This document shows positions 16,247-30,792 of a DNA stretch of 64,000 bases, in pieces. The DNA is from Escherichia coli (GTDB lineage: Bacteria > Pseudomonadota > Gammaproteobacteria > Enterobacterales > Enterobacteriaceae). The notes under the pieces were generated by a model, which made no database searches, had not been told where the DNA came from, and saw only the letters and a program-made list of their open reading frames with translations. The position numbers and the translations under genes were made by a program. Where the stretch lies: the NCBI RefSeq assembly GCF_024223415.1, contig NZ_CP100500.1. The stretch is one strand, 5' to 3'. Each line of letters begins with the position of its first letter. The stretch's first letter is position 1.

Positions 16247-16662
16247 GTTTTGCCCTGAAACTGGCGCGTGAGATGGGGCGACCCGACTGGCGCGCCATGC
16301 TTGCCGGGATGTCATCCACGGAGTATGCCGACTGGCACCGCTTTTACAGTACCCATTATTTTCATGATGTTCTGCTGGATATGCACTTTTCCGGGCTGAC
16401 GTACACCGTGCTCAGCCTGTTTTTCAGCGATCCGGATATGCATCCGCTGGATTTCAGTCTGCTGAACCGGCGCGAGGCTGACGAAGAGCCTGAAGATGAT
16501 GTGCTGATGCAGAAAGCGGCAGGGCTTGCCGGAGGCGTCCGCTTTGGCCCGGACGGGAATGAAGTTATCCCTGCATCCCCGGATGTGGCGGACATGACGG
16601 AGGATGACGTAATGCTGATGACAGTATCAGAAGGGATCGCAGGAGGAGTCCGGTATGGCTGA
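16228..16662 (+). CDS. T: Tail assembly protein T (made only as a G-T fusion by -1 frameshift)
   Basis: -1 frame ORF extending from the slippery site to the start of H. Confidence 0.8.
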   Translation: MFDGELSFALKLAREMGRPDWRAMLAGMSSTEYADWHRFYSTHYFHDVLLDMHFSGLTYTVLSLFFSDPDMHPLDFSLLNRREADEEPEDDVLMQKAAGLAGGVRFGPDGNEVIPASPDVADMTEDDVMLMTVSEGIAGGVRYG

Positions 16663-19216
16663 ACCGGTAGGCGATCTGGTCGTTGATTTAAGTCTGGATG
16701 CGGCCAGGTTTGACGAGCAGATGGCCAGAGTCAGGCGTCATTTTTCCGGTACGGAAAGTGATGCGAAAAAAACAGCGGCAGTCGTTGAACAGTCAATGAA
16801 CCGGCAGGCGCTGGCTGCACAGAAAGCGGGGATTTCCGTCGGACAGTATAAAGCCGCCATGCGTATGCTGCCTGCACAGTTCACCGACGTGGCCACACAG
16901 CTTGCAGGCGGGCAGAGTCCGTGGCTGATCCTGCTGCAACAGGGTGGTCAGGTGAAGGACTCCTTCGGCGGGATGATCCCCATGTTCAGGGGGCTTGCCG
17001 GTGCGATCACCCTGCCGATGGTCGGGGCCACCTCGCTGGCGGTGGCGACCGGTGCGCTGGCGTATGCCTGGTATCAGGGCAACTCAACCCTGTCCGATTT
17101 CAACAAAACGCTGGTCCTTTCCGGCAATCAGGCGGGACTGACGGCAGATCGTATGCTGGTCCTGTCCAGAGCCGGGCAGGCGGCAGGGCTGACGTTTAAC
17201 CAGACCAGCGAGTCACTCAGCGCACTGGTTAAGGCGGGGGTAAGCGGTGAGGCTCAGATTGCGTCCATCAGCCAGAGTGTGGCGCGTTTCTCCTCTGCAT
17301 CCGGCGTGGAGGTGGACAAGGTCGCTGAAGCCTTCGGGAAGCTGACCACAGACCCGACGTCGGGGCTGACGGCGATGGCGCGCCAGTTCCATAACGTGAC
17401 GGCGGAGCAGATTGCGTATGTTGCTCAGTTGCAGCGTTCCGGCGATGAGGCAGGGGCATTGCAGGCGGCGAACGAGGCCGCAACGAAAGGGTTTGATGAC
17501 CAGACCCGCCGCCTGAAAGAGAACATGGGCACGCTGGAAACCTGGGCAGACAGGACAGCACGGGCATTCAAATCCATGTGGGATGCGGTGCTGGATACTG
17601 GTCGTCCTGATACCGCGCAGGAGATGCTGATTAAGGCAGAGGCCGCGTTTAAGAAAGCGGACGATATCTGGAATCTGCGCAAGGATGATTATTTTGTTAA
17701 CGATGAAGCGCGGGCGCGTTACTGGGATGATCGTGAAAAGGCCCGTCTTGCGCTTGAAGCCGCCCGAAAGAAGGCTGAGCAGCAGAGTCAACAGGACAAA
17801 AATGCGCAGCAGCAGAGCGATACCGAAGCGTCACGGCTGAAATATACCGAAGAGGCGCAGAAGGCTTACGAACGCCTGCAGACACCGCTGGAGAAATATA
17901 CCGCCCGTCAGGAAGAACTGAACAAGGCACTGAAAGACGGAAAAATCCTGCAGGCAGATTACAACACGCTGATGGCGGCGGCGAAAAAGGATTATGAAGC
18001 GACGCTGAAAAAGCCGAAACAGTCCGGCGTGAAGGTGTCTGCGGGCGATCGTCAGGAAGACAGTGCTCATGCCGCCCTGCTGACGCTTCAGGCAGAACTC
18101 CGGACGCTGGAGAAGCATGCCGGAGCAAATGAGAAAATCAGCCAGCAGCGCCGGGATTTGTGGAAGGCGGAGAGTCAGTTCGCGGTACTGGAGGAGGCGG
18201 CGCAACGTCGCCAGCTGTCTGCACAGGAGAAATCCCTGCTGGCGCATAAAGATGAGACGCTGGAGTACAAACGCCAGCTGGCTGCACTTGGCGACAAGGT
18301 TACGTATCAGGAGCGCCTGAACGCGCTGGCGCAGCAGGCGGATAAATTCGCACAGCAGCAACGGGCAAAACGGGCCGCCATTGATGCGAAAAGCCGGGGG
18401 CTGACTGACCGGCAGACAGAACGGGAAGCCACGGAACAGCGCCTGAAGGAACAGTATGGCGATAATCCGCTGGCGCTGAATAACGTCATGTCAGAGCAGA
18501 AAAAGACCTGGGCGGCTGAAGACCAGCTTCGCGGGAACTGGATGGCAGGCCTGAAGTCCGGCTGGAGTGAGTGGGAAGAGAGCGCCACGGACAGTATGTC
18601 GCAGGTAAAAAGTGCAGCCACGCAGACCTTTGATGGAATTGCACAGAATATGGCGGCGATGCTGACCGGCAGTGAGCAGAACTGGCGCAGCTTCACCCGT
18701 TCCGTGCTGTCCATGATGACAGAAATTCTGCTTAAGCAGGCAATGGTGGGGATTGTCGGGAGTATCGGCAGCGTCATTGGCGGTGCTGCCGGTGGTGGCG
18801 CATCAGTGTCAGGCGGTACAGCCATTCAGGCTGCTGCGGCAAAATTCCATTTTGCGACCGGGGGATTTACGGGAACCGGCGGCAAATATGAGCCAGCGGG
18901 GATTGTTCACCGTGGTGAGTTTGTCTTCACGAAGGAGGCAACCAGCCGGATTGGCGTGGGAAATCTCTACCGGCTGATGCGCGGCTATGCCACTGGTGGT
19001 TATGTCGGTGGCACCGGAAGTCCGGCACAAATGCGGCGTTCAGAGGGTATCAGGTTTGAGCAGAACAACAACGTGGTGATTCAGAACGACGGTACGAATG
19101 GTCTGCCAGGTCCACAGATGCTGAAGGCGGTGTATGACATGGCCCGCAAGGGTGCCCGTGATGAAATTCAGACACAGATGCGTGATGGTGGTCTGTTCTC
19201 CGGAGGTGGACGATGA
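16655..19216 (+). CDS. H: Tail tape measure protein H
   Basis: 853 aa, the same length as lambda H; coiled-coil-rich with a Gly-rich C-terminal region. Confidence 0.9.
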   Translation: MAEPVGDLVVDLSLDAARFDEQMARVRRHFSGTESDAKKTAAVVEQSMNRQALAAQKAGISVGQYKAAMRMLPAQFTDVATQLAGGQSPWLILLQQGGQVKDSFGGMIPMFRGLAGAITLPMVGATSLAVATGALAYAWYQGNSTLSDFNKTLVLSGNQAGLTADRMLVLSRAGQAAGLTFNQTSESLSALVKAGVSGEAQIASISQSVARFSSASGVEVDKVAEAFGKLTTDPTSGLTAMARQFHNVTAEQIAYVAQLQRSGDEAGALQAANEAATKGFDDQTRRLKENMGTLETWADRTARAFKSMWDAVLDTGRPDTAQEMLIKAEAAFKKADDIWNLRKDDYFVNDEARARYWDDREKARLALEAARKKAEQQSQQDKNAQQQSDTEASRLKYTEEAQKAYERLQTPLEKYTARQEELNKALKDGKILQADYNTLMAAAKKDYEATLKKPKQSGVKVSAGDRQEDSAHAALLTLQAELRTLEKHAGANEKISQQRRDLWKAESQFAVLEEAAQRRQLSAQEKSLLAHKDETLEYKRQLAALGDKVTYQERLNALAQQADKFAQQQRAKRAAIDAKSRGLTDRQTEREATEQRLKEQYGDNPLALNNVMSEQKKTWAAEDQLRGNWMAGLKSGWSEWEESATDSMSQVKSAATQTFDGIAQNMAAMLTGSEQNWRSFTRSVLSMMTEILLKQAMVGIVGSIGSVIGGAAGGGASVSGGTAIQAAAAKFHFATGGFTGTGGKYEPAGIVHRGEFVFTKEATSRIGVGNLYRLMRGYATGGYVGGTGSPAQMRRSEGIRFEQNNNVVIQNDGTNGLPGPQMLKAVYDMARKGARDEIQTQMRDGGLFSGGGR

Positions 19217-20244: not shown

Positions 20245-20988
20245 ATGACAGAGACAGAATCAGCGATTCTGGCGCACGCCCGGCGATGTGCGCCAGCGGA
20301 GTCGTGCGGCTTCGTGGTGAGAGCGCCGGAGGGGGAAAGATATTTCCCCTGCGTGAATATCTCCGGTGAGCCGGAGGCGTATTTCCGGATGTCGCCGGAG
20401 GACTGGCTGCAGGCAGAGATGCAGGGTGAGATTGTGGCGCTGGTCCACAGTCACCCCGGTGGTCTGCCCTGGCTGAGTGAGGCCGACCGGCGGCTGCAGG
20501 TGCAGAGTGATTTGCCGTGGTGGCTGGTCTGCCGGGGGGCGATTCACAAGTTCCGCTGTGTGCCGCATCTCACCGGGCGGTGCTTTGAGCACGGGGTGAC
20601 GGACTGTTACACGCTGTTCCGGGATGCTTACCATCTGGCGGGAATTGAGATGCCGGATTTTCATCGCGGGGATGACTGGTGGCGTAACGGTCAGAATCTC
20701 TATCTTGACAATATGGAGGCGACTGGTTTTTACCGTGTCGCACTGACAGAGGCGCAGCCCGGCGACGTGCTGCTGTGCTGTTTTGGTTCATCGGTGCCGA
20801 ATCATGCCGCCATTTACTGCGGCGACGGCGGGCTGCTGCACCATATTCCTGAACAACTGAGCAAACGAGAGAGGTATACCGACAAATGGCAGCGACGCAC
20901 ACACTCCCTCTGGCGTCACCGGGCATGGCACGCATCTGCCTTTACGGGGATTTGCAACGATTTGGCCGCCGCATCGACCTTCGTGTGA
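20245..20988 (+). CDS. K: Tail assembly protein K (NlpC/P60 plus JAB-like domains)
   Basis: MTETESAILAHARRCAPAESCGFVV... matches lambda K as recalled. Confidence 0.9.
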   Translation: MTETESAILAHARRCAPAESCGFVVRAPEGERYFPCVNISGEPEAYFRMSPEDWLQAEMQGEIVALVHSHPGGLPWLSEADRRLQVQSDLPWWLVCRGAIHKFRCVPHLTGRCFEHGVTDCYTLFRDAYHLAGIEMPDFHRGDDWWRNGQNLYLDNMEATGFYRVALTEAQPGDVLLCCFGSSVPNHAAIYCGDGGLLHHIPEQLSKRERYTDKWQRRTHSLWRHRAWHASAFTGICNDLAAASTFV

Positions 20989-21533
20989 AAACGGGAGCCG
21001 AAGCCATCCGGGCGCTGGCCACGCAGCTCCCTGCGTTTCGTCAGAAACTGAGCGACGGCTGGTATCAGGTGCGTATTGCCGGGCGTGATACAGGCGAAAA
21101 CGAATTATCAGCCCGTCTTAATGAACCGCTGGCAAATGGTGCCGTGATCCACATCGTGCCGCGTCTGGCGGGAGCCAAACGTGGTGGTGTGTTTCAGGCA
21201 GTGCTGGGCGCGGCGCTGATTGCGGTGGCATGGTGGAACCCTGCAGGCTGGCTGGGGGCTGCGGCTTTATCGGGCATGTATGCGGCAGGGGCCAGTATGG
21301 TGCTCGGTGGTGTGGCGCAGATGCTGGCACCGAAAGCCAAAACCCCCCGCACACAGACAACGGATAACGGCAAACAGAACACCTATTTTTCTTCACTGGA
21401 TAACATGGTTGCCCAGGGGAATGCTCTGCCCGTTCTGTACGGTGAAATGCGCGTGGGGTCACGGGTAATTTCGCAGGAGATCAGCACAGCGGATGAGGGG
21501 GATGGCGTCCGGGTTGTGGTGATTGGTCGCTGA
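20886..21533 (+). CDS. I: Tail assembly protein I
   Basis: MAATHTLPLASPGMARICLYGDLQRFGRR... lambda I-like; overlaps the K 3' end. Confidence 0.85.
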   Translation: MAATHTLPLASPGMARICLYGDLQRFGRRIDLRVKTGAEAIRALATQLPAFRQKLSDGWYQVRIAGRDTGENELSARLNEPLANGAVIHIVPRLAGAKRGGVFQAVLGAALIAVAWWNPAGWLGAAALSGMYAAGASMVLGGVAQMLAPKAKTPRTQTTDNGKQNTYFSSLDNMVAQGNALPVLYGEMRVGSRVISQEISTADEGDGVRVVVIGR

Positions 21534-21593: not shown

Positions 21594-24500
21594 ATGGGTA
21601 AAGGCAGCAGTAAGGGGCATACCCCGCGCGAAGCGAAGGACAACCTGAAGTCCACGCAGTTGCTGAGTGTGATCGATGTCATCAGCGAAGGGCCGATACA
21701 AGGACCGGTGGATGGATTAAAAAGCGTGCTGCTGAACGGTACGCCGGTGCTGGACAGTGAGGGGAATACCAATATATCCGGCGTCACGGTGGTATTCCGG
21801 GCCGGTGAGCAGGAGCAGACGCCGCCGGAGGGATTTGAATCCTCCGGCTCCGAGACGGTGCTGGGTACGGAAGTGAAGTACGACACGCCGATTACCCGGA
21901 CCATCACGTCGGCAAACATCGACCGTCTGCGCCTGACCTTCGGTGTGCAGGCACTGGTGGAAACCACCTCAAAGGGGGACCGGAATCCGTCGGAAGTCCG
22001 CCTGCTGGTTCAGATACAGCGTAACGGTCGCTGGTTAACGGAAAAAGACATCACCATTAAGGGCAAAACCACTTCACAGTATCTGGCTTCGGTGGTGGTG
22101 GATAACCTGCCGCCGCGCCCGTTCAGTATCCGGATGCGCAGGATGACACCGGACAGCACCACAGACCAGCTGCAGAACAAAACGCTCTGGTCGTCATACA
22201 CCGAAATCATCGATGTGAAACAGTGCTACCCGAACACGGCACTGGTCGGTGTGCAGGTGGATTCGGAGGAGTTCGGCAGCCAGCAGGTGAGCCGTAATTA
22301 TCATTTTCGCGGGCGCATTCTGCAGGTGCCGTCGAACTATAACCCGCAGACGCGGCAATACAGCGGTATCTGGGACGGAACGTTTAAACCGGCATACAGC
22401 GATAACCCGGCCTGGTGTCTGTGGGATATGCTGACCCACCCGCGCTACGGCATGGGGAAACGTGTTGGCGCAGCGGATGTGGACAAATGGGCGCTGTATG
22501 TCATCGGCCAGTACTGCGACCAGTCGGTGCCGGACGGCTCTGGTGGCACGGAGCCGCGCATCACCTGTAATGCCTGGCTGACCAGGCAGCGTAAGGCGTG
22601 GGATGTGCTCAGTGATTTCTGCTCGGCGATGCGCTGTATGCCGGTATGGAACGGGCAGACGCTGACGTTCGTGCAGGACCGACCGTCGGATAAGGTGTGG
22701 ACCTATAACCGCAGTAATGTGGTGATGCCGGATGATGGCGCGCCGTTCCGCTACAGCTTCAGCGCCCTGAAGGACCGCCATAATGCCGTTGAGGTGAACT
22801 GGAGTGACCCGGATAACGGCCAGGAGACGGCGACAGAGCTTGTGGAGGACACGCAGGCCATTGCCCGTTACGGTCGTAACGTCACGAAGATGGATGCCTT
22901 TGGCTGTACCAGCCGGGGGCAGGCACACCGCGCCGGGCTGTGGCTGATTAAAACGGAGCTGCTGGAAACGCAGACCGTGGACTTCAGCGTGGGTGCCGAA
23001 GGGCTTCGCCATGTGCCGGGCGATGTCATTGAAATCTGTGATGATGACTATGCCGGTATCAGCACCGGTGGGCGCGTGCTGGCGGTGAACAGCCAGACCC
23101 GGACGCTGACGCTCGATCGTGAAATCACGCTGCCATCCTCCGGTACCACGCTGATAAGCCTGGTTGACGGAAGTGGCAATCCGGTCAGCGTGGAGGTTCA
23201 GTCCGTCACTGACGGCGTGAAGGTGAAAGTGAGCAGTGTTCCTGACGGCGTTGCTGAATACAGCGTGTGGGGGCTGAAGCTGCCGACGCTGCGCCAGCGC
23301 CTGTTCCGCTGCGTGAGTATCCGTGAGAACGACGACGGCACGTATGCCATCACTGCCGTGCAGCATGTACCGGAAAAAGAGGCCATCGTGGATAACGGGG
23401 CGCACTTTGACGGCGACCAGAGCGGAACGGTGAATGGTGTCACGCCGCCAGCGGTGCAGCACCTGACCGCAGAAGTCACCGCAGACAGCGGGGAATATCA
23501 GGTGCTGGCGCGCTGGGACACGCCGAAGGTGGTGAAGGGCGTGAGCTTCCTGCTTCGCCTGACCGTGGCAGCGGATGACGGCAGTGAGCGGCTGGTCAGC
23601 ACGGCCCGGACGACGGAAACCACATACCGCTTCAGGCAACTGGCGCTGGGGCGTTACACGCTGACGGTCCGGGCGGTAAATGCCCGGGGGCAGCAGGGAG
23701 ACCCGGCGTCGGTATCGTTCCGGATTGCCGCACCGGCAGCGCCGTCGCGGATTGAGCTGACGCCGGGCTATTTTCAGATAACCGCCACGCCGCATCTTGC
23801 GGTTTACGATCCGACGGTACAGTTTGAGTTCTGGTTTTCGGAAAAGCGGATTACCGATATCAGGCAGGTTGAAACCACAGCCCGTTATCTTGGTACCGGA
23901 AGGCAGTGGCTTGTCTCCGGCCAGAATATTAAACCTGGCCATGATTATTACTTTTATATCCGCAGTGTTAACACTGTCGGTAAATCGGCATTCGTGGAGG
24001 CAGTCGGTCGGGCGAGTAATGATCCTGCCGGTTACCTTAATTTTTTCAGGGGGGCGATAAATAAAACGCATCTGGGACGGGAGATCAATGAACGCATTGA
24101 TGCCTCTGCACGGCGCACTGAAGTTGAGCAACTGGAGAATGCGATTAACCGCGAAATGACGCAGCTGGAGAAAGATGTGAGGCAGCGTGCGGAGCGTGAT
24201 ATCGCAGAGGTGACGAAAAAAATCACGGCGTCTGAAAACAGCATAACGGAACTGGTGGCGAAAAAGAGCGGTGAACAGTCAATGGCCATTGCGGAAGTTG
24301 ACAGAAAAGTTGACAGGATGGGAAGCGAAATCCGGCAGACAGTAAGCAGGAGCACGGAGGAGAACAGCCGACAGATAGCGCAGATCAGACAGTATGTTGA
24401 TGATAAGGGAAGTCAGATCACACAGAGCACGGATAAAAAACTGGGATCCTGGAATGCCAGCATTGAGCAGATACAGAAAGTTCAGGAGGACACGCGCCGG

Positions 24501-25325
24501 AACCTGAACAGCATGTGGGCTGTGAAGCTGCAGCAGACACGGGATGGACGTCTCTATATTGCAGGTATTGGTGCCGGAATCGAAAATACGTCTGACGGAA
24601 TTCAGAGTCAGATCCTGATGCAGGCAGATCGTATTGCGATGATTAACCCGGAAAATGGCAATACAACACCTTTGTTTGTAGCTCAGGGTGATCAGCTGTT
24701 CATGAATGATGTTTTCATGAAGCGACTGTTTGCGGTGAGTATCACCTCATCCGGCAATCCCCCGGCATTTTCCCTGACACCGGACGGGCGTCTGACGGCG
24801 AAAAATGTCGATATCAGTGGTAACGTGAATGCGAATTCGGGCTCGCTCAACAACGTCACGATTAACGAGAACTGTCGGGTTCTGGGAAAACTGTCTGCAA
24901 ACCAGATTGAAGGCGATCTCGTTAAAACAGTGGGTAAGGCTTTCCCCCGTGACTCCCGTGCACCGGAGACGTGGCCATCAGGGACCATTACCGTCAGGGT
25001 TTATGACGATCAGCCGTTTGACCGGCAAATTGTTATTCCAGCGGTGGCTTTCAGGGGGGCCAGACATCCGCGGAAGGATAAGGAGCCTTATTCGTCATGC
25101 CGCCTGATAGTGAAGAAAAACGGGGCTGAAATTTATAACCGAACGGCTCTGGATAATACGCTGATATACACGGGTGTTATTGATATGCCTGCAGGCAGTG
25201 GCGTAATGACACTGGAGTTTTCGGTATCAGCATGGTGGGTAAATGGCTGGTATCCCTCAGCAAGTATCAGCGATTTGCTGGTTGTTGTGATGAAGAAAGC
25301 CACTGCAGGCATCACGATTAGCTGA
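21594..25325 (+). CDS. J: Central tail fibre / host specificity protein J
   Basis: 1243 aa with conserved J N-terminal domains; C-terminal ~350 aa is the receptor-binding region. Confidence 0.9.
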
Positions 25326-25343
25326 ATTTTATAACCCAGATAC

Positions 25344-25368
25344 GGGCGCCAGAAATGGCGCCTTTTTT
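25344..25368 (+). terminator. Rho-independent terminator after J
   Basis: ggcgcc-agaaat-ggcgcc followed by TTTTTT. Confidence 0.6.
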
Positions 25369-25383
25369 ATTTGTGGAGCGAGT

Positions 25384-27198
25384 ATGGCGGCTGTAAAAAT
25401 TTCAGGCGTGCTGAGGGACGGAACCGGAAAACCGGTACCGGGATGCATTATTGAGCTGAAAGCGAAGAGAACCAGCGAGACAGTCATCGCCACGACAGTG
25501 GCTTATGGCATGCCGGAAGAGACGGGGAGTTACAGTATGGATGTGGAGCCAGGAATATACAGGGTGACACTCAATACAGAAGGTTACCGTCCTTCGTATG
25601 TGGGAGATATCGTGGTCAGGGAGGATTCTTCACCGGGAACACTGAATAAATTTCTGATGGAGATGGAAGATGCTCCTTATTATCCGAAGGCGTTGTCAGA
25701 GCTGGAGGCTGTGGTGCAGTCCATACTGCACAGAGCAGAGTCCGCGGCATCTGAGGCGGAGGAAGCCCGGAAACGAGCTGCATCTGCCCGGGGACCACGA
25801 GGAGAGAAAGGGGATACTGGTGCTCGTGGTGAAAGAGGCATTACCGGGCCACAGGGGCCAAAAGGTGAAACAGGAGCACGTGGCCCGGCAGGACCACAGG
25901 GACCAAAAGGTGAAACAGGTGAACGCGGTCCGGCAGGTCCACAGGGACTAAAGGGCGATACAGGTGAACGCGGCCCGGCAGGTCCACAGGGACCAAAGGG
26001 TGAAACAGGTGCACGCGGCCCGGCAGGTCCACAGGGAGCAAAGGGCGAAACAGGTGAACGCGGCCCGGCAGGTCCACAGGGAGCAAAGGGCGAAACAGGT
26101 GCACGTGGTCCGGAAGGCCCTCAGGGTCTGAAGGGAGAAAAGGGTGAGCGAGGAGAAAAAGGCCCTAAGGGGGATAAAGGAGATCCGGGAGGTCCACAGG
26201 GACCAAAGGGGGATACAGGTGAACGCGGCCCGGCAGGTCCACAGGGATCAAAGGGCGATACAGGTGAACGTGGCCCGGCAGGTCCTCAGGGACCAAAGGG
26301 GGATACAGGTGAACGTGGCCCGGAAGGTCCACAGGGAGCAAAGGGTGAAACAGGTGAACGCGGCCCGGCAGGACCACAGGGACCAAAAGGTGAAACAGGT
26401 GAACGCGGTCCGACAGGTCCACAGGGAGCAAAAGGTGAAACAGGAGCACGCGGTCCGGCAGGTCCTCAGGGACCAAGAGGAGAGTCAGCCCGTGGACAAC
26501 TGCTGAATGGTGATCTGAACCGACTGGGACGAGTGACCGATCAGGGTGATTATTATCAGCCATCAGACAGTGGGGCTACACGAGAAAATAATTATCCGAT
26601 TCAGAGAGCGGGTTATCTTCAGGTAAGAGTTGGTGCATGGGGATATTGCCAGCATGAATATACAACCTGGAACCCACCACGAAAGTTCGTAAGAACTGTT
26701 ACTGGTAATTTTACCGGTAATGGCCCCTGGTCTGAATGGAAAGAGCTGGGAGCCCAGGGGGAGCGTGGTCCACAGGGACCAAAAGGTGAAACAGGTGCAC
26801 GCGGTCCGGCAGGTCCACAGGGGCCAAGAGGGTATACAGGTGAACGCGGGCAGACAGGTCTACAGGGGCCAAGAGGGTATACAGGTGAACGCGGTCCGGC
26901 AGGTCCACAGGGGCCAAGAGGAGAAGCGGGGCGGCCAGCGAGCGTCGGAAGTGTTTATTCCGTGGGGTCTTATGTTCTGGGGATCATAGAACGAAATCAT
27001 GAGATAACAAATACCCGTCAAATACCCGGGTATCGTATCAGACAGGCCGTTATTGTGTCGTCGTCATCGGATAAACTTACAGATATCCGCTTTTTATTTG
27101 GCAATCCTATGCTTGGTACATGGATGTTATGCACAACTAACATGACGGTGAATAATATCATTGGGACGATTTGGGGCCTGTTTCAGAGAATACGGTGA
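25384..27198 (+). CDS. stf: Side tail fibre protein with collagen-like Gly-X-Y repeats (Stf N-terminus)
   Basis: N-terminus [29 protein letters not shown] resembles lambda Stf; then long runs of [16 protein letters not shown]. Confidence 0.85.
25790..26490 (+). repeat. Collagen-like (Gly-X-Y)n coding repeats inside stf; second block at ~26750-26935
   Basis: Tandem 27-bp units encoding [16 protein letters not shown] and variants; these create spurious ORFs in other frames. Confidence 0.85.
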
Positions 27199-27212
27199 CA
27201 GGGGAGAAATGA

Positions 27213-27788
27213 ATGAAGGTCGATAAAATCACGTCACCAGTGTGGGCTGACAGGGGTCATACGACCATAAACTGTATAGTGAAGTTTTCAGACGCGGAAA
27301 CAGAATGTGTATTTACAGCAAGTGCGGATGATCCTGAGTCTTACGGTCGTGAAATATTTGAAGCCTGCATAAGAGGTGATGCAGGGCCGGTAGGTGAGTA
27401 CCGGGCAAATGATGATATGGCTGTGGAAGAAGCACGCAGGATGAAAAACGCGGAGATAAATGCCTGGCGTGATGCGATGGAGGCGTCAGGGTATGTTTTT
27501 GAGCACAGAGGACGGAAATGGGATTATGGAAAGGAAACCATGACACGTCTTGGAATGTCGGCATCAGCGGCCAGAGGCGGTGTGTTGCCGGAAGGATTTT
27601 TCTGGACGGACGCAGAGAATAATGATGTACCGATGACGGCAGATGAACTGATATCCCTGAGTGATGCTGCTGGTAAAGCGATGTTCAGGAAAGGCCTTGA
27701 AATACATATAAGGCAAAGGGAGATGAAAAAGGCAATAGCAGAACTGAGTGACAGTGAAACCATTCTGGCGTACAGGGTTGGATGGTGA
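27213..27788 (+). CDS. Hypothetical protein downstream of stf (possible tail-fibre assembly or accessory protein; not lambda Tfa-like)
   Basis: 191 aa with SD GGGGAG; sits where tfa would be but lacks the Tfa sequence pattern. Confidence 0.6.
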   Translation: MKVDKITSPVWADRGHTTINCIVKFSDAETECVFTASADDPESYGREIFEACIRGDAGPVGEYRANDDMAVEEARRMKNAEINAWRDAMEASGYVFEHRGRKWDYGKETMTRLGMSASAARGGVLPEGFFWTDAENNDVPMTADELISLSDAAGKAMFRKGLEIHIRQREMKKAIAELSDSETILAYRVGW

Positions 27789-28534
27789 AACTGATAAAAA
27801 AACCCCTCTGAAAATTCTGTCAGAGGGGGGCAAGGATCTATATTTATTATGCAGTAATGCTTTCACTCCGGTAATTAATTTCCGTGATTAACTGCTTTCG
27901 ATCAATAAAGGAATTGCAAAAAGGTGATCTTGTTCACGACATCGTGGATGATAATATGCCTGATGTCTGAATCCGGAAACAGTGATCTGGCGGGTTTCAT
28001 GTGAAGTTGACGGATAAAAAAATCCGCACGACCAGACAGACGTGCGGTTTACGAAATTCGTAACAAGAGGCTTTTCTACGGATCACGTGGTGCGTGCCAC
28101 GTGAAATTTTTGTAGCGCAAAATGTGTAATGTGTAAATACAAGGAAGGAAAAAGTTAAATCGGTGGAAGTCCATGCCTGCCACATGTATGTCTGCATTCC
28201 TCGTTTTGAACAGAATTCTCACCAGACATCGTGAATTTCTCATTCAATCATCAGAGATATTAACCAGGATTTTTATTGTTTTGTGATATCAGCAGTGCAG
28301 GTATACAGACATTAAAGTAATCAGGTTTATTATAACCACCTTTACAAAGTTGTATGTGTTTATAATTTAAGGATTTTAATCCCAGTCGTTTTCTGCTGCT
28401 TAAATTGAGGGCGCATATTATACACAATAATATTCCTGGCATTATTAAATTAATAAAAGAGGATTCTTATCACTGTATTTTTGCTCCGCACTACCGTTCT
28501 GGCTGGTGAAGTAATAATACAGGAGAATAACAGA

Positions 28535-29644
28535 ATGCTTAAAAGACGTGATGCTTTTTTAAAGAAAAGCGCGCTGGCAGTGAGTGTGGCCCTGCTGCTC
28601 TCATCTCAGGCTTCGGCTCATAAAACAATTACTGATTCAACGGCGGGTATTATCTGGATTGATGGTGGCGGTCAGTCACTTGAAAAAGTAGCTGTGATTG
28701 ACCGTCAACTAAATGATACAGGATATAATTTTGCCGTAGGTAGTGGTGCAGCAATTCTGGATGCGGATAAATCCATGGCAACAGGAAATAATACAGCTGT
28801 TTTTAATGCAGACAACAGTGTCGCTCTGGGGTATGGCTCTCAGGTGAATGGAGAAAGCAATGTACTTTCTGTAGGGGCCGGTCCTTCAGGATATGGATTT
28901 TCAGTTGATGGTGCACCGGAAACCCGCCGGATTATAAATGTTTCAGATGGTGTTAAGGATAGTGATGCGGCCACAAAAGGACAGATGGACAACGCCATTG
29001 CAGATGCTGTACGGGAGTCGGGGGATGCCCTGCGCGGTGAGATAGGAGCTGTCTACCGTGATGCTGTTGCTGATGCTAAGAGTCGAGTGGAATCGGCAGA
29101 AAACAGACTTAACGGTAATATTACAGCTGCCAGGGCTTCTGCGCAGGAATACACGGATGCGGTGAAGTCGGATGTTCTGGACGAGACGCGTACATATACA
29201 GACAGCAGTGTGCGTACTGTCCGTAACGAGGTGAAAAGCCAGGCAGAACATCTCAGCGATGTGCTTGTGAAGAACAGGGCGCAGACGGATGCAGCAATAG
29301 CCTCAAATACAGCAGCGATAAGGAATAACAGTCATCGTCTGGATTTGACGGAAGCCTGGCAGAAGATGGCGACAGAGAGAATGAATAATATGCAGGAGCA
29401 GATTAAAGAGAACCGGAAGGAGTTAAGGGAGAGTGCAGCCCAGAGCGCGGCACTGGCCGGTCTTTTCCAGCCATACAGTGTTGGAAAATTTAACGCGACA
29501 GCAGCCGTTGGTGGTTACCGTGATGAGCAGGCCATTGCGGTGGGCGTGGGCTACCGTTTCACAGAGAATGTGGCAGGAAAAGTTGCAGTTGCTGCAGGTG
29601 GGTCATCCGCATCGTGGAATGCTGGTGTGAATTTTGAGTTCTGA
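28535..29644 (+). CDS. Trimeric autotransporter adhesin, YadA-like (Eib-family-like)
   Basis: Signal peptide, head/neck motifs (INVSDGVKDSDAATKGQMDNAIAD), coiled-coil stalk and C-terminal anchor ending AGVNFEF; SD AGGAGA. Confidence 0.8.
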   Translation: MLKRRDAFLKKSALAVSVALLLSSQASAHKTITDSTAGIIWIDGGGQSLEKVAVIDRQLNDTGYNFAVGSGAAILDADKSMATGNNTAVFNADNSVALGYGSQVNGESNVLSVGAGPSGYGFSVDGAPETRRIINVSDGVKDSDAATKGQMDNAIADAVRESGDALRGEIGAVYRDAVADAKSRVESAENRLNGNITAARASAQEYTDAVKSDVLDETRTYTDSSVRTVRNEVKSQAEHLSDVLVKNRAQTDAAIASNTAAIRNNSHRLDLTEAWQKMATERMNNMQEQIKENRKELRESAAQSAALAGLFQPYSVGKFNATAAVGGYRDEQAIAVGVGYRFTENVAGKVAVAAGGSSASWNAGVNFEF

Positions 29645-29704: not shown

Positions 29705-30160
29705 ATGCTGGATATAATCCTGGCGACGAGAGATATTTATTTTGAAAAAGCCCTGCGAGAGATATTTGGAACCGTAAGCAGTCGAATCAGATATATAGAA
29801 GATGCCATATCAGACAGAAGAAGGGTGCAGTCAGGCAGGTCATTCAGATATTATTTTGTATTCTGTGATGATGAGTATACAGATATTGTTCGTATTCTTT
29901 TTACCGGAGAGGCCTGCTGTATTCTGAATAAGTCGATGCTGAATCTGAGAGCGGCCGGAGGTGTGTTGACGCTGGAAGAGCGCAGAGCGGTACTGAACCG
30001 GTATTACAGAGGTTTAAGTATTGCGGAGATTACAGAAGAGACGGGGCAGAATGACAAGACGGTATACGGTCATCTTCGTCGTGCACTGCAGCGGTCTGGA
30101 TTCCGGAAGGGGCGTTTTATAAAGGGGAGAGAAGCTGCGGGGGATTCAGGTGTTGAATAA
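29705..30160 (+). CDS. Putative transcriptional regulator with sigma-70 region-4/LuxR-type HTH
   Basis: C-terminal LTLEERRAVLNRYYRGLSIAEITEETGQNDKTVYGHLRRALQR; preceded by palindrome cccgggggagtcccccggg. Confidence 0.6.
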   Translation: MLDIILATRDIYFEKALREIFGTVSSRIRYIEDAISDRRRVQSGRSFRYYFVFCDDEYTDIVRILFTGEACCILNKSMLNLRAAGGVLTLEERRAVLNRYYRGLSIAEITEETGQNDKTVYGHLRRALQRSGFRKGRFIKGREAAGDSGVE

Positions 30161-30543: not shown

Positions 30544-30792
30544 TTAGTGAAAAAACCAGTCATCAGCAGTTTCCCAGACTTCCTGCAGCGTTTCCTGTAT
30601 GAACTTCTGAGCGTTTTCTTTATCTACGGCTCTTAAAATGGTCAGTCCGTCATTACTGGCGGATTTTACTATAACCTCCACATCGTCATATCGTTTTCTG
30701 ATACGGCGAGACATTTCCTGTTGTAGAGCAGGTACAGAGCCTTTTGGCATTTTGCTGAATTTTTCTTTAGCGATACAGATCTCAACACGCAT
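30544..30792 (-). CDS. DinI-like protein
   Basis: 82 aa [16 protein letters not shown]...[14 protein letters not shown] resembles DinI; SD GGAGGG. Confidence 0.85.

Follow-up and report, generated by a model that had tools for sequence, protein, structure and literature searches.

A probable two-gene cassette of a collagen-like side tail fibre and a DUF4376 helper protein in a lambdoid prophage of Escherichia coli

Collagen-like proteins encoded by Escherichia coli prophages have been sorted into the types EPclA to EPclD, in which a PfN domain is followed by an optional PCoil segment (a low-complexity coiled coil of about 88–116 amino acids (aa) between PfN and Col), one or two collagen (Col) regions and a C-terminal domain (Ghosh et al. 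2012, PMC3368898). Biochemical work on EPclA has shown that the protein is trimeric, that its collagen helix is genuine and that its C-terminal domain trimerises. A PfC domain defines EPclA and EPclB, whilst in classes C and D the C-terminus bears no relation to PfC and the PCoil is often absent; type EPclC is represented by ORF-401 of prophage P-EibA. Proteins with two Col regions usually carry one G-x-P-G-G-P-x-G interruption in the first, and from copy to copy the length of Col changes by multiples of three (all PMC3368898). Helper proteins of phage fibres have been described as well. Mu Tfa and Pam3 gp25 attach to the fibre by their N-domain and oligomerise through a helical C-domain (PMC9608196). 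Alteromonas phage V22 (PMC7289586) and likewise a Campylobacter CJIE1 prophage (PMC7882524) require a DUF4376 protein, encoded directly past the fibre gene, for their fibres to be active, and DUF4376 chaperones have been modelled as trimeric 'caps' with a proposed transient role (PMC10579305). The locus described here lies in a 64,000-nucleotide stretch of E. coli DNA (NCBI RefSeq assembly GCF_024223415.1, contig NZ_CP100500.1; hereafter 'the window') and consists of a side tail fibre gene (stf) encoding 604 aa and a downstream gene for a 191-aa helper protein, both of which exist as an initial annotation of the sequence had given them (Table 1). We consider it likely that they make up a two-gene side tail fibre cassette of a lambdoid prophage, comprising a homotrimeric fibre with a collagen shaft and its cognate chaperone or cap, and that the length of the fibre changes by whole repeat units.

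The window fibre shares with the EPcl proteins the PfN domain, the two collagen blocks and the GxPGGPxG break in the first of them. Its match to the Collagen family (PF01391; E 5.5e-48) excludes chance, and the Stf-type N-terminus that had been recognised initially is confirmed by a PF08400 match over aa 3–133. By homology with lambda Stf this domain is the presumed attachment end of the fibre. Counting uninterrupted runs gives 98 Gly-X-Y triplets (45, 32 and 21), or 294 residues (231 + 63 aa), in place of the figure of about 330 put forward earlier. Runs 1a and 1b form one block that is broken by a single residue only, and run 2 forms the second block beyond an 87-aa module. At 0.286 nm per residue, the standard rise of collagen, the 294 residues correspond to two shaft parts of about 66 and 18 nm. 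No PCoil is present, as PfN ends at aa 133 and Col begins at aa 137, with just three residues in between, and neither the window fibre at E<=0.01 nor its tip family at E<=10 matches PfC (PF06820), which excludes EPclA and EPclB and fits classes C and D. Like EPclC, then, the window fibre is without a PCoil and has a C-terminus unrelated to PfC, and it too lies in a lambdoid prophage with an Eib-like trimeric autotransporter downstream. EPclC is accordingly the closest type in layout, by a comparison of architecture only. The listed EPclC examples (117+75, 106+102 and 118+117 aa) are shorter than the collagen of the window fibre, which nearly reaches that of the longest recorded EPcl (322 aa).

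Compared with lambda Stf and Tfa, the gene position after J, the PfN attachment domain and the order of fibre gene and small helper gene are shared. Lambda Stf, however, has a shaft of Pf2 repeats and beta structure where the window fibre has collagen, the tip type differs, and lambda Tfa belongs to Caudo_TAP whereas the window helper belongs to DUF4376. The Pf2 'phage tail fibre repeat' (PF03406) finds no match in the window fibre; the related fibres of PhiR12_5 and 1720a-02 do match it.

The collagen blocks had been described as near-identical repeats of 27 bp. Both parts of that description need revision, since the DNA repeat period is 45 bp, that is 15 aa or five triplets with the consensus GPAGPQGxKGxTGxR, and the copies are similar (76–92% alike) rather than near-identical. 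Tandem Repeats Finder reports period 45/135 at 25849–26476 (14.3 copies, 76% matches) and period 45 at 26767–26921 (3.4 copies, 87%), and in a separate repeat search the start-to-start spacing of copies was 45 throughout. A 27-bp period is ruled out, as the two programs give only 45 bp and its multiples.

That the repeats could vary the length of the fibre, as the initial annotation suggested, is well supported by comparison with other strains. A megablast search of 5,426 complete E. coli genomes returned 17 that cover at least 80% of the region; there is no identical copy among these 17, the best being 98.2% identical. We compared nine alleles, the window and eight full alleles from complete E. 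coli genomes (L001, L002, L003, L005, L006, L007, L008 and L010). Given as triplets in runs 1a/1b/2, the window and L001 have 45/32/21 (604 aa), L002 has 45/32/20 (601 aa), L003 and L005 have 45/37/20 (616 aa), L006 has 45/17/20 (556 aa), L007 has 35/17/21 (529 aa) and L010 has 45/32/15 (586 aa), whilst L008 has 55/23 and is without the internal module (457 aa). The total ranges from 73 to 102 triplets, the fibre gene from 1374 to 1851 nt and the computed span of the shaft from about 63 to 88 nm, one 15-residue unit accounting for about 4.3 nm. In the alignment the alleles differ by indels of 15, 30 and 45 aa and by one of 3 aa; with the exception of the latter and of the rearranged allele L008, these are multiples of the 45-bp unit. 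The flanks hardly change, with DNA identities of 99.5–100% for the N-domain, 98.1–99.2% for the tip and 99.7–100% for the helper gene, leaving aside L007, in which the helper is truncated by IS66. Variation of fibre length between strains is thus supported, and it has already been published for the family.

The 191-aa protein matches PF14301 (DUF4376) over aa 73–180 with 73.7 bits against a cut-off of 25, and has no match to Caudo_TAP/Tfa (PF02413) at E<=0.01. An identical protein is found on 462 contigs, all from E. coli. Its gene is co-oriented with the fibre gene and lies immediately downstream, starting 14 bp past the fibre stop codon and with its own GGAG-type ribosome-binding site. A DUF4376 gene stands immediately past the fibre gene in every locus examined (L001–L010, PhiR12_5, 1720a-02, phiP27 and L020–L022), and in BFVD the matches to the protein, with E down to 6e-8, are DUF4376 proteins from many groups of phages. 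AlphaFold2 models the protein with confidence (predicted local distance difference test, pLDDT, 96) as three strands and a helix (aa 3–54) followed by a helical hairpin with beta hairpins (aa 71–176), which is the two-part plan also seen in the chaperone structures solved for Pam3 gp25 and Mu Tfa (PMC9608196). A sequence search of the PDB with the protein gave nothing at E<=10. V22 gp27, A5 gp9 (PMC7289586, PMC10579305) and the product of the gene downstream of the CJIE1 H fibre (PMC7882524) share with it the C-terminal DUF4376, the gene position, a size of about 190–240 aa and an alpha-helical body with beta hairpins; the likeness is at the level of the Pfam family only and the client fibre differs. 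Judged by sequence, the 191-aa protein belongs to this described family of fibre-folding helpers, in keeping with the initial proposal of a chaperone or accessory protein. Fibre and helper are a further example of described fibre and chaperone families. The repeat number varies among related prophages, so that the combination of invariant repeats and a clear Tfa-type fold, which the initial annotation had said would make the locus ordinary, is not what was found. We regard the region as ordinary because both length variation (PMC3368898) and DUF4376 chaperones (PMC7289586, PMC10579305) are already published.

The helper is built from two modules. A HMMER scan of the full database found 679 relatives, most of which match aa ~70–191 only and a minority aa 1–~79 only, so that the two halves shuffle independently. 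By analogy with the described helpers we infer that the N-module is a fibre-binding module and that the DUF4376 module serves in oligomerisation or as the chaperone proper. Classical Tfa proteins (Mu gpU/TfaMu, P2 gpG, lambda Tfa and Pam3 gp25; PMC9608196) share this plan of a variable, tip-matched N-module and a conserved helical C-module, and differ in matching PF02413. The claim that the 191-aa gene is not Tfa-like therefore holds at the level of PF02413, with the caveat that its N-module is elsewhere fused to a Caudo_TAP C-half: two database proteins (P0229 and P0279) combine the window-type N-module with such a C-half (49–51 bits), and the helper is thus a mosaic relative of Tfa chaperones rather than unrelated to them. 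Other combinations exist. The helper of E217 joins the window-type N-module to a third type of C-half, the 223-aa helper of 1720a-02 and L020/L021 joins an N-module that on visual inspection is P2-gpG-like to DUF4376 (the PF02413 match in 1720a-02 is weak, 18.8 bits and under the 22.1-bit cut-off), and a P2-like prophage has a Caudo_TAP_N + DUF4376 protein in the gpG (Tfa) slot after the H fibre. To judge from these sequences, the C-module of the helper is interchangeable with the classical Tfa C-half.

DUF4376 has been said to be homologous to the conserved C-terminus of TfaMu (PMC7882524). This was not reproduced: Mu gpU (gene U, L019 2976–3503) matches PF02413 only, with 127 bits, and hhalign of a DUF4376-type helper profile against Mu gpU gave no alignment (probability 0.2%).

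It is the N-module, not the C-module, that tracks the tip of the fibre. The window, PhiR12_5, phiP27, L016, L017 and E217 have both tip type A and N-module A, and 1720a-02, L020, L021, L022 and Mu have neither, a concordance of 11/11 loci (6/6 present, 5/5 absent), whilst a DUF4376 module is found in three of the six tip-A loci and in four of the five others, Mu being the one without it.

The 86-aa tip is presumed, by analogy, to be the trimerisation and receptor-binding end. No Pfam family covers it. Its family shares the motifs VGSY..L, G.R[IL]R, PGTW.C and LFQRI and includes the PhiR12_5 fibre, phiP27 L56, two fibres from metagenomes, of which L017 adjoins a Baseplate_J gene, and a Pbunavirus fibre, namely E217 gp46 and Pa193 gp47 (PDB 9b45; tip profile E 6e-6). 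Only residues 1–350 of Pa193 gp47 were built in 9b45 (PMC11456595), and the structure of the tip is for this reason absent from that entry. A tblastn search of a phage collection with the tip returned nothing at E<=0.01, although profile methods do find PhiR12_5 and phiP27, and a PDB sequence search with the fibre's C-terminal region returned animal and synthetic collagens only. The internal 87-aa module, also without a Pfam family, is predicted with low confidence to be beta-rich. It is 41–45% identical to modules in annotated (lateral) tail fibres of many unrelated phages of Escherichia (for example IME18, Over9000 and TheodorHerzl), Aeromonas, Vibrio, Proteus and Achromobacter, and also occurs in non-collagen, Pf2-containing E. 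coli fibres. Searches with the tip and with this module return mostly fragments because short-read assemblies break in repeats, and the fragmentary entries limit the depth of both alignments. Two database open reading frames join parts of the locus in other ways: P0121 has the first 18 aa of the helper joined to collagen, internal module and tip, and P0256 has helper aa 1–59 joined to the tip at a shared 'GEI'. Such joins reflect either a rearrangement of the locus or a chimeric assembly of DNA rich in repeats.

On the reading we favour, the fibre would be a homotrimer that docks on the tail tip through PfN, as homology with lambda Stf suggests, with a collagen triple-helical shaft that is interrupted by the 87-aa globular module and a beta-rich tip of 86 aa that would trimerise and probably binds the host surface. 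The 191-aa protein would be its cognate intermolecular chaperone or cap: the N-module (aa 1–66) would recognise this tip type and the DUF4376 module (aa 67–191) would provide a helical oligomerisation scaffold that sets three tips in register, from which the triple helix could nucleate at the C-terminus and the collagen zip up. The shaft would gain or lose steps of 15 residues by slippage or by unequal homologous recombination, both in register with the 45-bp unit, and recombination between the two collagen blocks could excise the internal module.

Several points weigh against parts of this account. Of the six positive tips, five went into building the tip profile, which leaves E217 as the one independent match, and it is from co-occurrence only that we infer contact between N-module and tip. 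The AlphaFold2 model of fibre aa 369–604, made from a 16-sequence alignment, is poor (mean pLDDT 42.7); the tip is modelled as all-beta with pLDDT of 45–78 per 10-residue block, and the fold and receptor-binding role of the tip consequently stay putative. Furthermore, a 601-aa allele is common to about five apparently different strains (H2–H14), which suggests that length change is not rapid and may be neutral. The differences in repeat number could indeed be neutral by-products of recombination between repeats or co-resident prophages, or partly assembly artefacts, with no tuning of the fibre; of the alternatives we give this one the most weight, whilst still rating it as rather unlikely. From allele to allele the substitutions within the repeats occur in reshuffled patterns, as gene conversion would give, many database entries of the family are fragments that end at the repeats, and the very short variants of 282–294 aa seen in draft assemblies (P0129 on a 1.5-kb contig and P0130 on an 86.5-kb NCBI contig) may be collapsed repeats. 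Nevertheless, all indels in complete genomes keep the reading frame, the Gly-X-Y register and both terminal domains, and variation in multiples of three is family-wide (PMC3368898). The former points to selection for an intact fibre and is no proof that length itself is adaptive.

The role of the helper and the state of the locus may also be read differently. The gp38 protein of phages T2 and T6 remains on the fibre tip and contributes to receptor recognition, and the 191-aa protein might similarly be no transient chaperone but a distal structural part or an adhesin, retained at the fibre tip in the virion and aiding receptor recognition, a reading that we judge to be unlikely. Such a role is in line with the observation that TfaMu stays bound to the Mu fibre (PMC7882524), the 'cap' role, proposed to be transient, of DUF4376 chaperones (PMC10579305) can be counted on the same side, and the tight co-variation of N-module and tip fits stable binding as well as transient binding. 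Matching PHROG families are labelled 'tail fiber protein' and homologues in several phage records are annotated as tail fibre (component), but these labels are automatic annotation and not tests; the DUF4376 protein of V22 acts as a chaperone for the production of active fibres (PMC7289586), and the conserved part of the family is an interchangeable helical module and not the variable, surface-exposed domain expected of an adhesin. It is very improbable that the cassette is a decaying remnant of a defective prophage that is neither expressed nor used. Related loci are often truncated or hit by IS66/ISCro1 elements, within the fibre gene in L004 and L009 and within the chaperone gene in L007, and all that is left in L011 is a truncated DUF4376 gene of 123 aa, which immediately follows a J pseudogene that is likewise truncated. 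In the window, by contrast, both open reading frames are full length with intact terminal domains, the tape measure gene, I and J upstream are intact, and the helper is conserved without change on the many contigs mentioned above.

Table 1. Positions of the fibre–helper cassette, its parts and the upstream tail genes in the window.
Feature	Position	Strand	Remarks
Lambda-type tape measure gene	16655-19216		intact
gpI	20886-21533		intact
gpJ tail-tip gene	21594-25325		1243 aa; directly upstream of fibre gene; intact
Terminator-like hairpin and T-run	25344..25363	+	8 pairs, 6 GC, tail TTTTTATTTG; between gpJ and fibre gene, left edge of cassette
Side tail fibre gene	25384..27198	+	604 aa; collagen-like Stf of EPcl type; PF08400 + PF01391; phrog_366 'tail fiber protein', E 2e-118
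PfN (phage_tail_N, PF08400) domain	25390..25782	+	aa 3-133; E 4.4e-40, profile positions 2-132 of 134
Collagen run 1a	25792..26196	+	45 Gly-X-Y triplets; aa 137-271
GDPGGPQG interruption	26179..26202	+	aa 266-273; conserved G-x-P-G-G-P-x-G break of two-Col EPcl proteins (PMC3368898)
Collagen run 1b	26200..26487	+	32 triplets; aa 273-368; most length-variable segment among relatives (17, 23, 32 or 37 triplets)
Internal non-collagen module	26488..26748	+	87 aa; aa 369-455
Collagen run 2	26749..26937	+	21 triplets; aa 456-518; 15, 20 or 21 in relatives
C-terminal tip domain	26938..27195	+	86 aa; aa 519-604
Downstream helper gene	27213-27788	+	191 aa; PF14301
Helper N-module	27213..27410	+	aa 1-66; predicted three beta strands and helix; co-varies with fibre-tip type
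Helper DUF4376 module	27411..27788	+	aa 67-191 including stop codon; predicted long helical hairpin with beta hairpins
GC-rich hairpin	27803..27828	.	A-run on + strand, T-run on - strand; just past cassette, right edge

The window carries the late or tail region of a lambdoid prophage with a tail operon of lambda type (tape measure, gpI, gpJ). The gpJ protein has a long predicted coiled-coil-like stretch that matches Phage_Tail_Tip (aa 957–1084), followed by a C-terminal receptor-binding Ig domain; it is presumably longer than lambda J, and the J proteins of relatives are annotated with differing lengths. At the J–stf junction (25326–25383) stf follows J directly in the window, past the terminator-like hairpin, and in relatives the gap holds either a lom gene (L002 and L010) or a pair of hypothetical genes, of 74 and 220 aa (L001, L003, L005, L007 and L008); the junction is a variable insertion point. 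IS66-family elements recur at the cassette in relatives, with ISCro1 in L001, L004, L007 and L009. They lie past the chaperone gene, in stf, in the chaperone gene or beside the cassette, which in L010 is flanked by IS66-family transposases (L001 7713–10328; L004 130–2745; L007 4516–7131; L009 1–1976; L010 1–2264 and 5866–7484), and this recurrence suggests a hot spot or repeated decay of the locus. At 1777–2009, in the late-regulatory region of the prophage, there is a cluster of three tRNA genes (Met-CAT, Arg-TCT and Thr-TGT), which we take to resemble the tRNA clusters of Stx-type lambdoid prophages.

Downstream of the cassette lies a gene for a YadA-type trimeric autotransporter of 387 aa (28481–29644) with a YadA_anchor domain and about 36% identity to EibC/EibD, followed by one for a 151-aa sigma-70 region-4 helix-turn-helix protein (29705–30160). 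The pair is kept in relatives, in which the annotated length of the autotransporter varies widely, from about 345 to 515 aa. The autotransporter may be Eib-like, an uncharacterised protein for immunoglobulin binding or serum resistance that has a regulator of its own. The prophage ends near the DinI gene (30544–30792, minus strand), past which there is a two-component pair of the LytS/LytTR type whose kinase is annotated btsS in E. coli relatives of the same layout.

A broader reading of the locus can be offered tentatively, although as a whole it seems improbable to us. The collagen repeats would be more than a spacer, namely a built-in diversification device, the tip and N-module of type A a portable recognition cassette, and DUF4376 a prefoldin-like counterpart that stands in for the Tfa C-domain. 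The reach of the fibre would then be tuned, about 4.3 nm at a time, to the depth of the host surface polysaccharide by recombination in the 45-bp register, and recombination between the blocks would switch the 87-aa module, which possibly binds a ligand, in or out, as in L008. The tip and N-module of type A would be common to Escherichia siphophages, the Stx myophage phiP27 and Pseudomonas Pbunaviruses, and would be able to join no fewer than three oligomerisation modules that are unrelated to one another, namely DUF4376, the C-half of Caudo_TAP and that of the E217 type.

In conclusion, the likely function of the locus is that of a side tail fibre cassette whose collagen shaft varies in length between strains and whose helper belongs to a described family of chaperones. 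The natural series of alleles, from 73 to 102 triplets and with or without the internal module, could be used to ask whether fibre length matters, and a rule for engineering may be drawn from the helpers, in that the N-module would have to match the tip whilst a DUF4376 or Tfa C-module could be swapped. Current understanding is not changed by the allele series or by this rule. Side tail fibres set the adsorption speed and host range of the lambdoid prophages by which virulence genes pass from one E. coli strain to another, and a fibre whose reach is altered by simple repeat recombination would be a plausible route to host-range drift.

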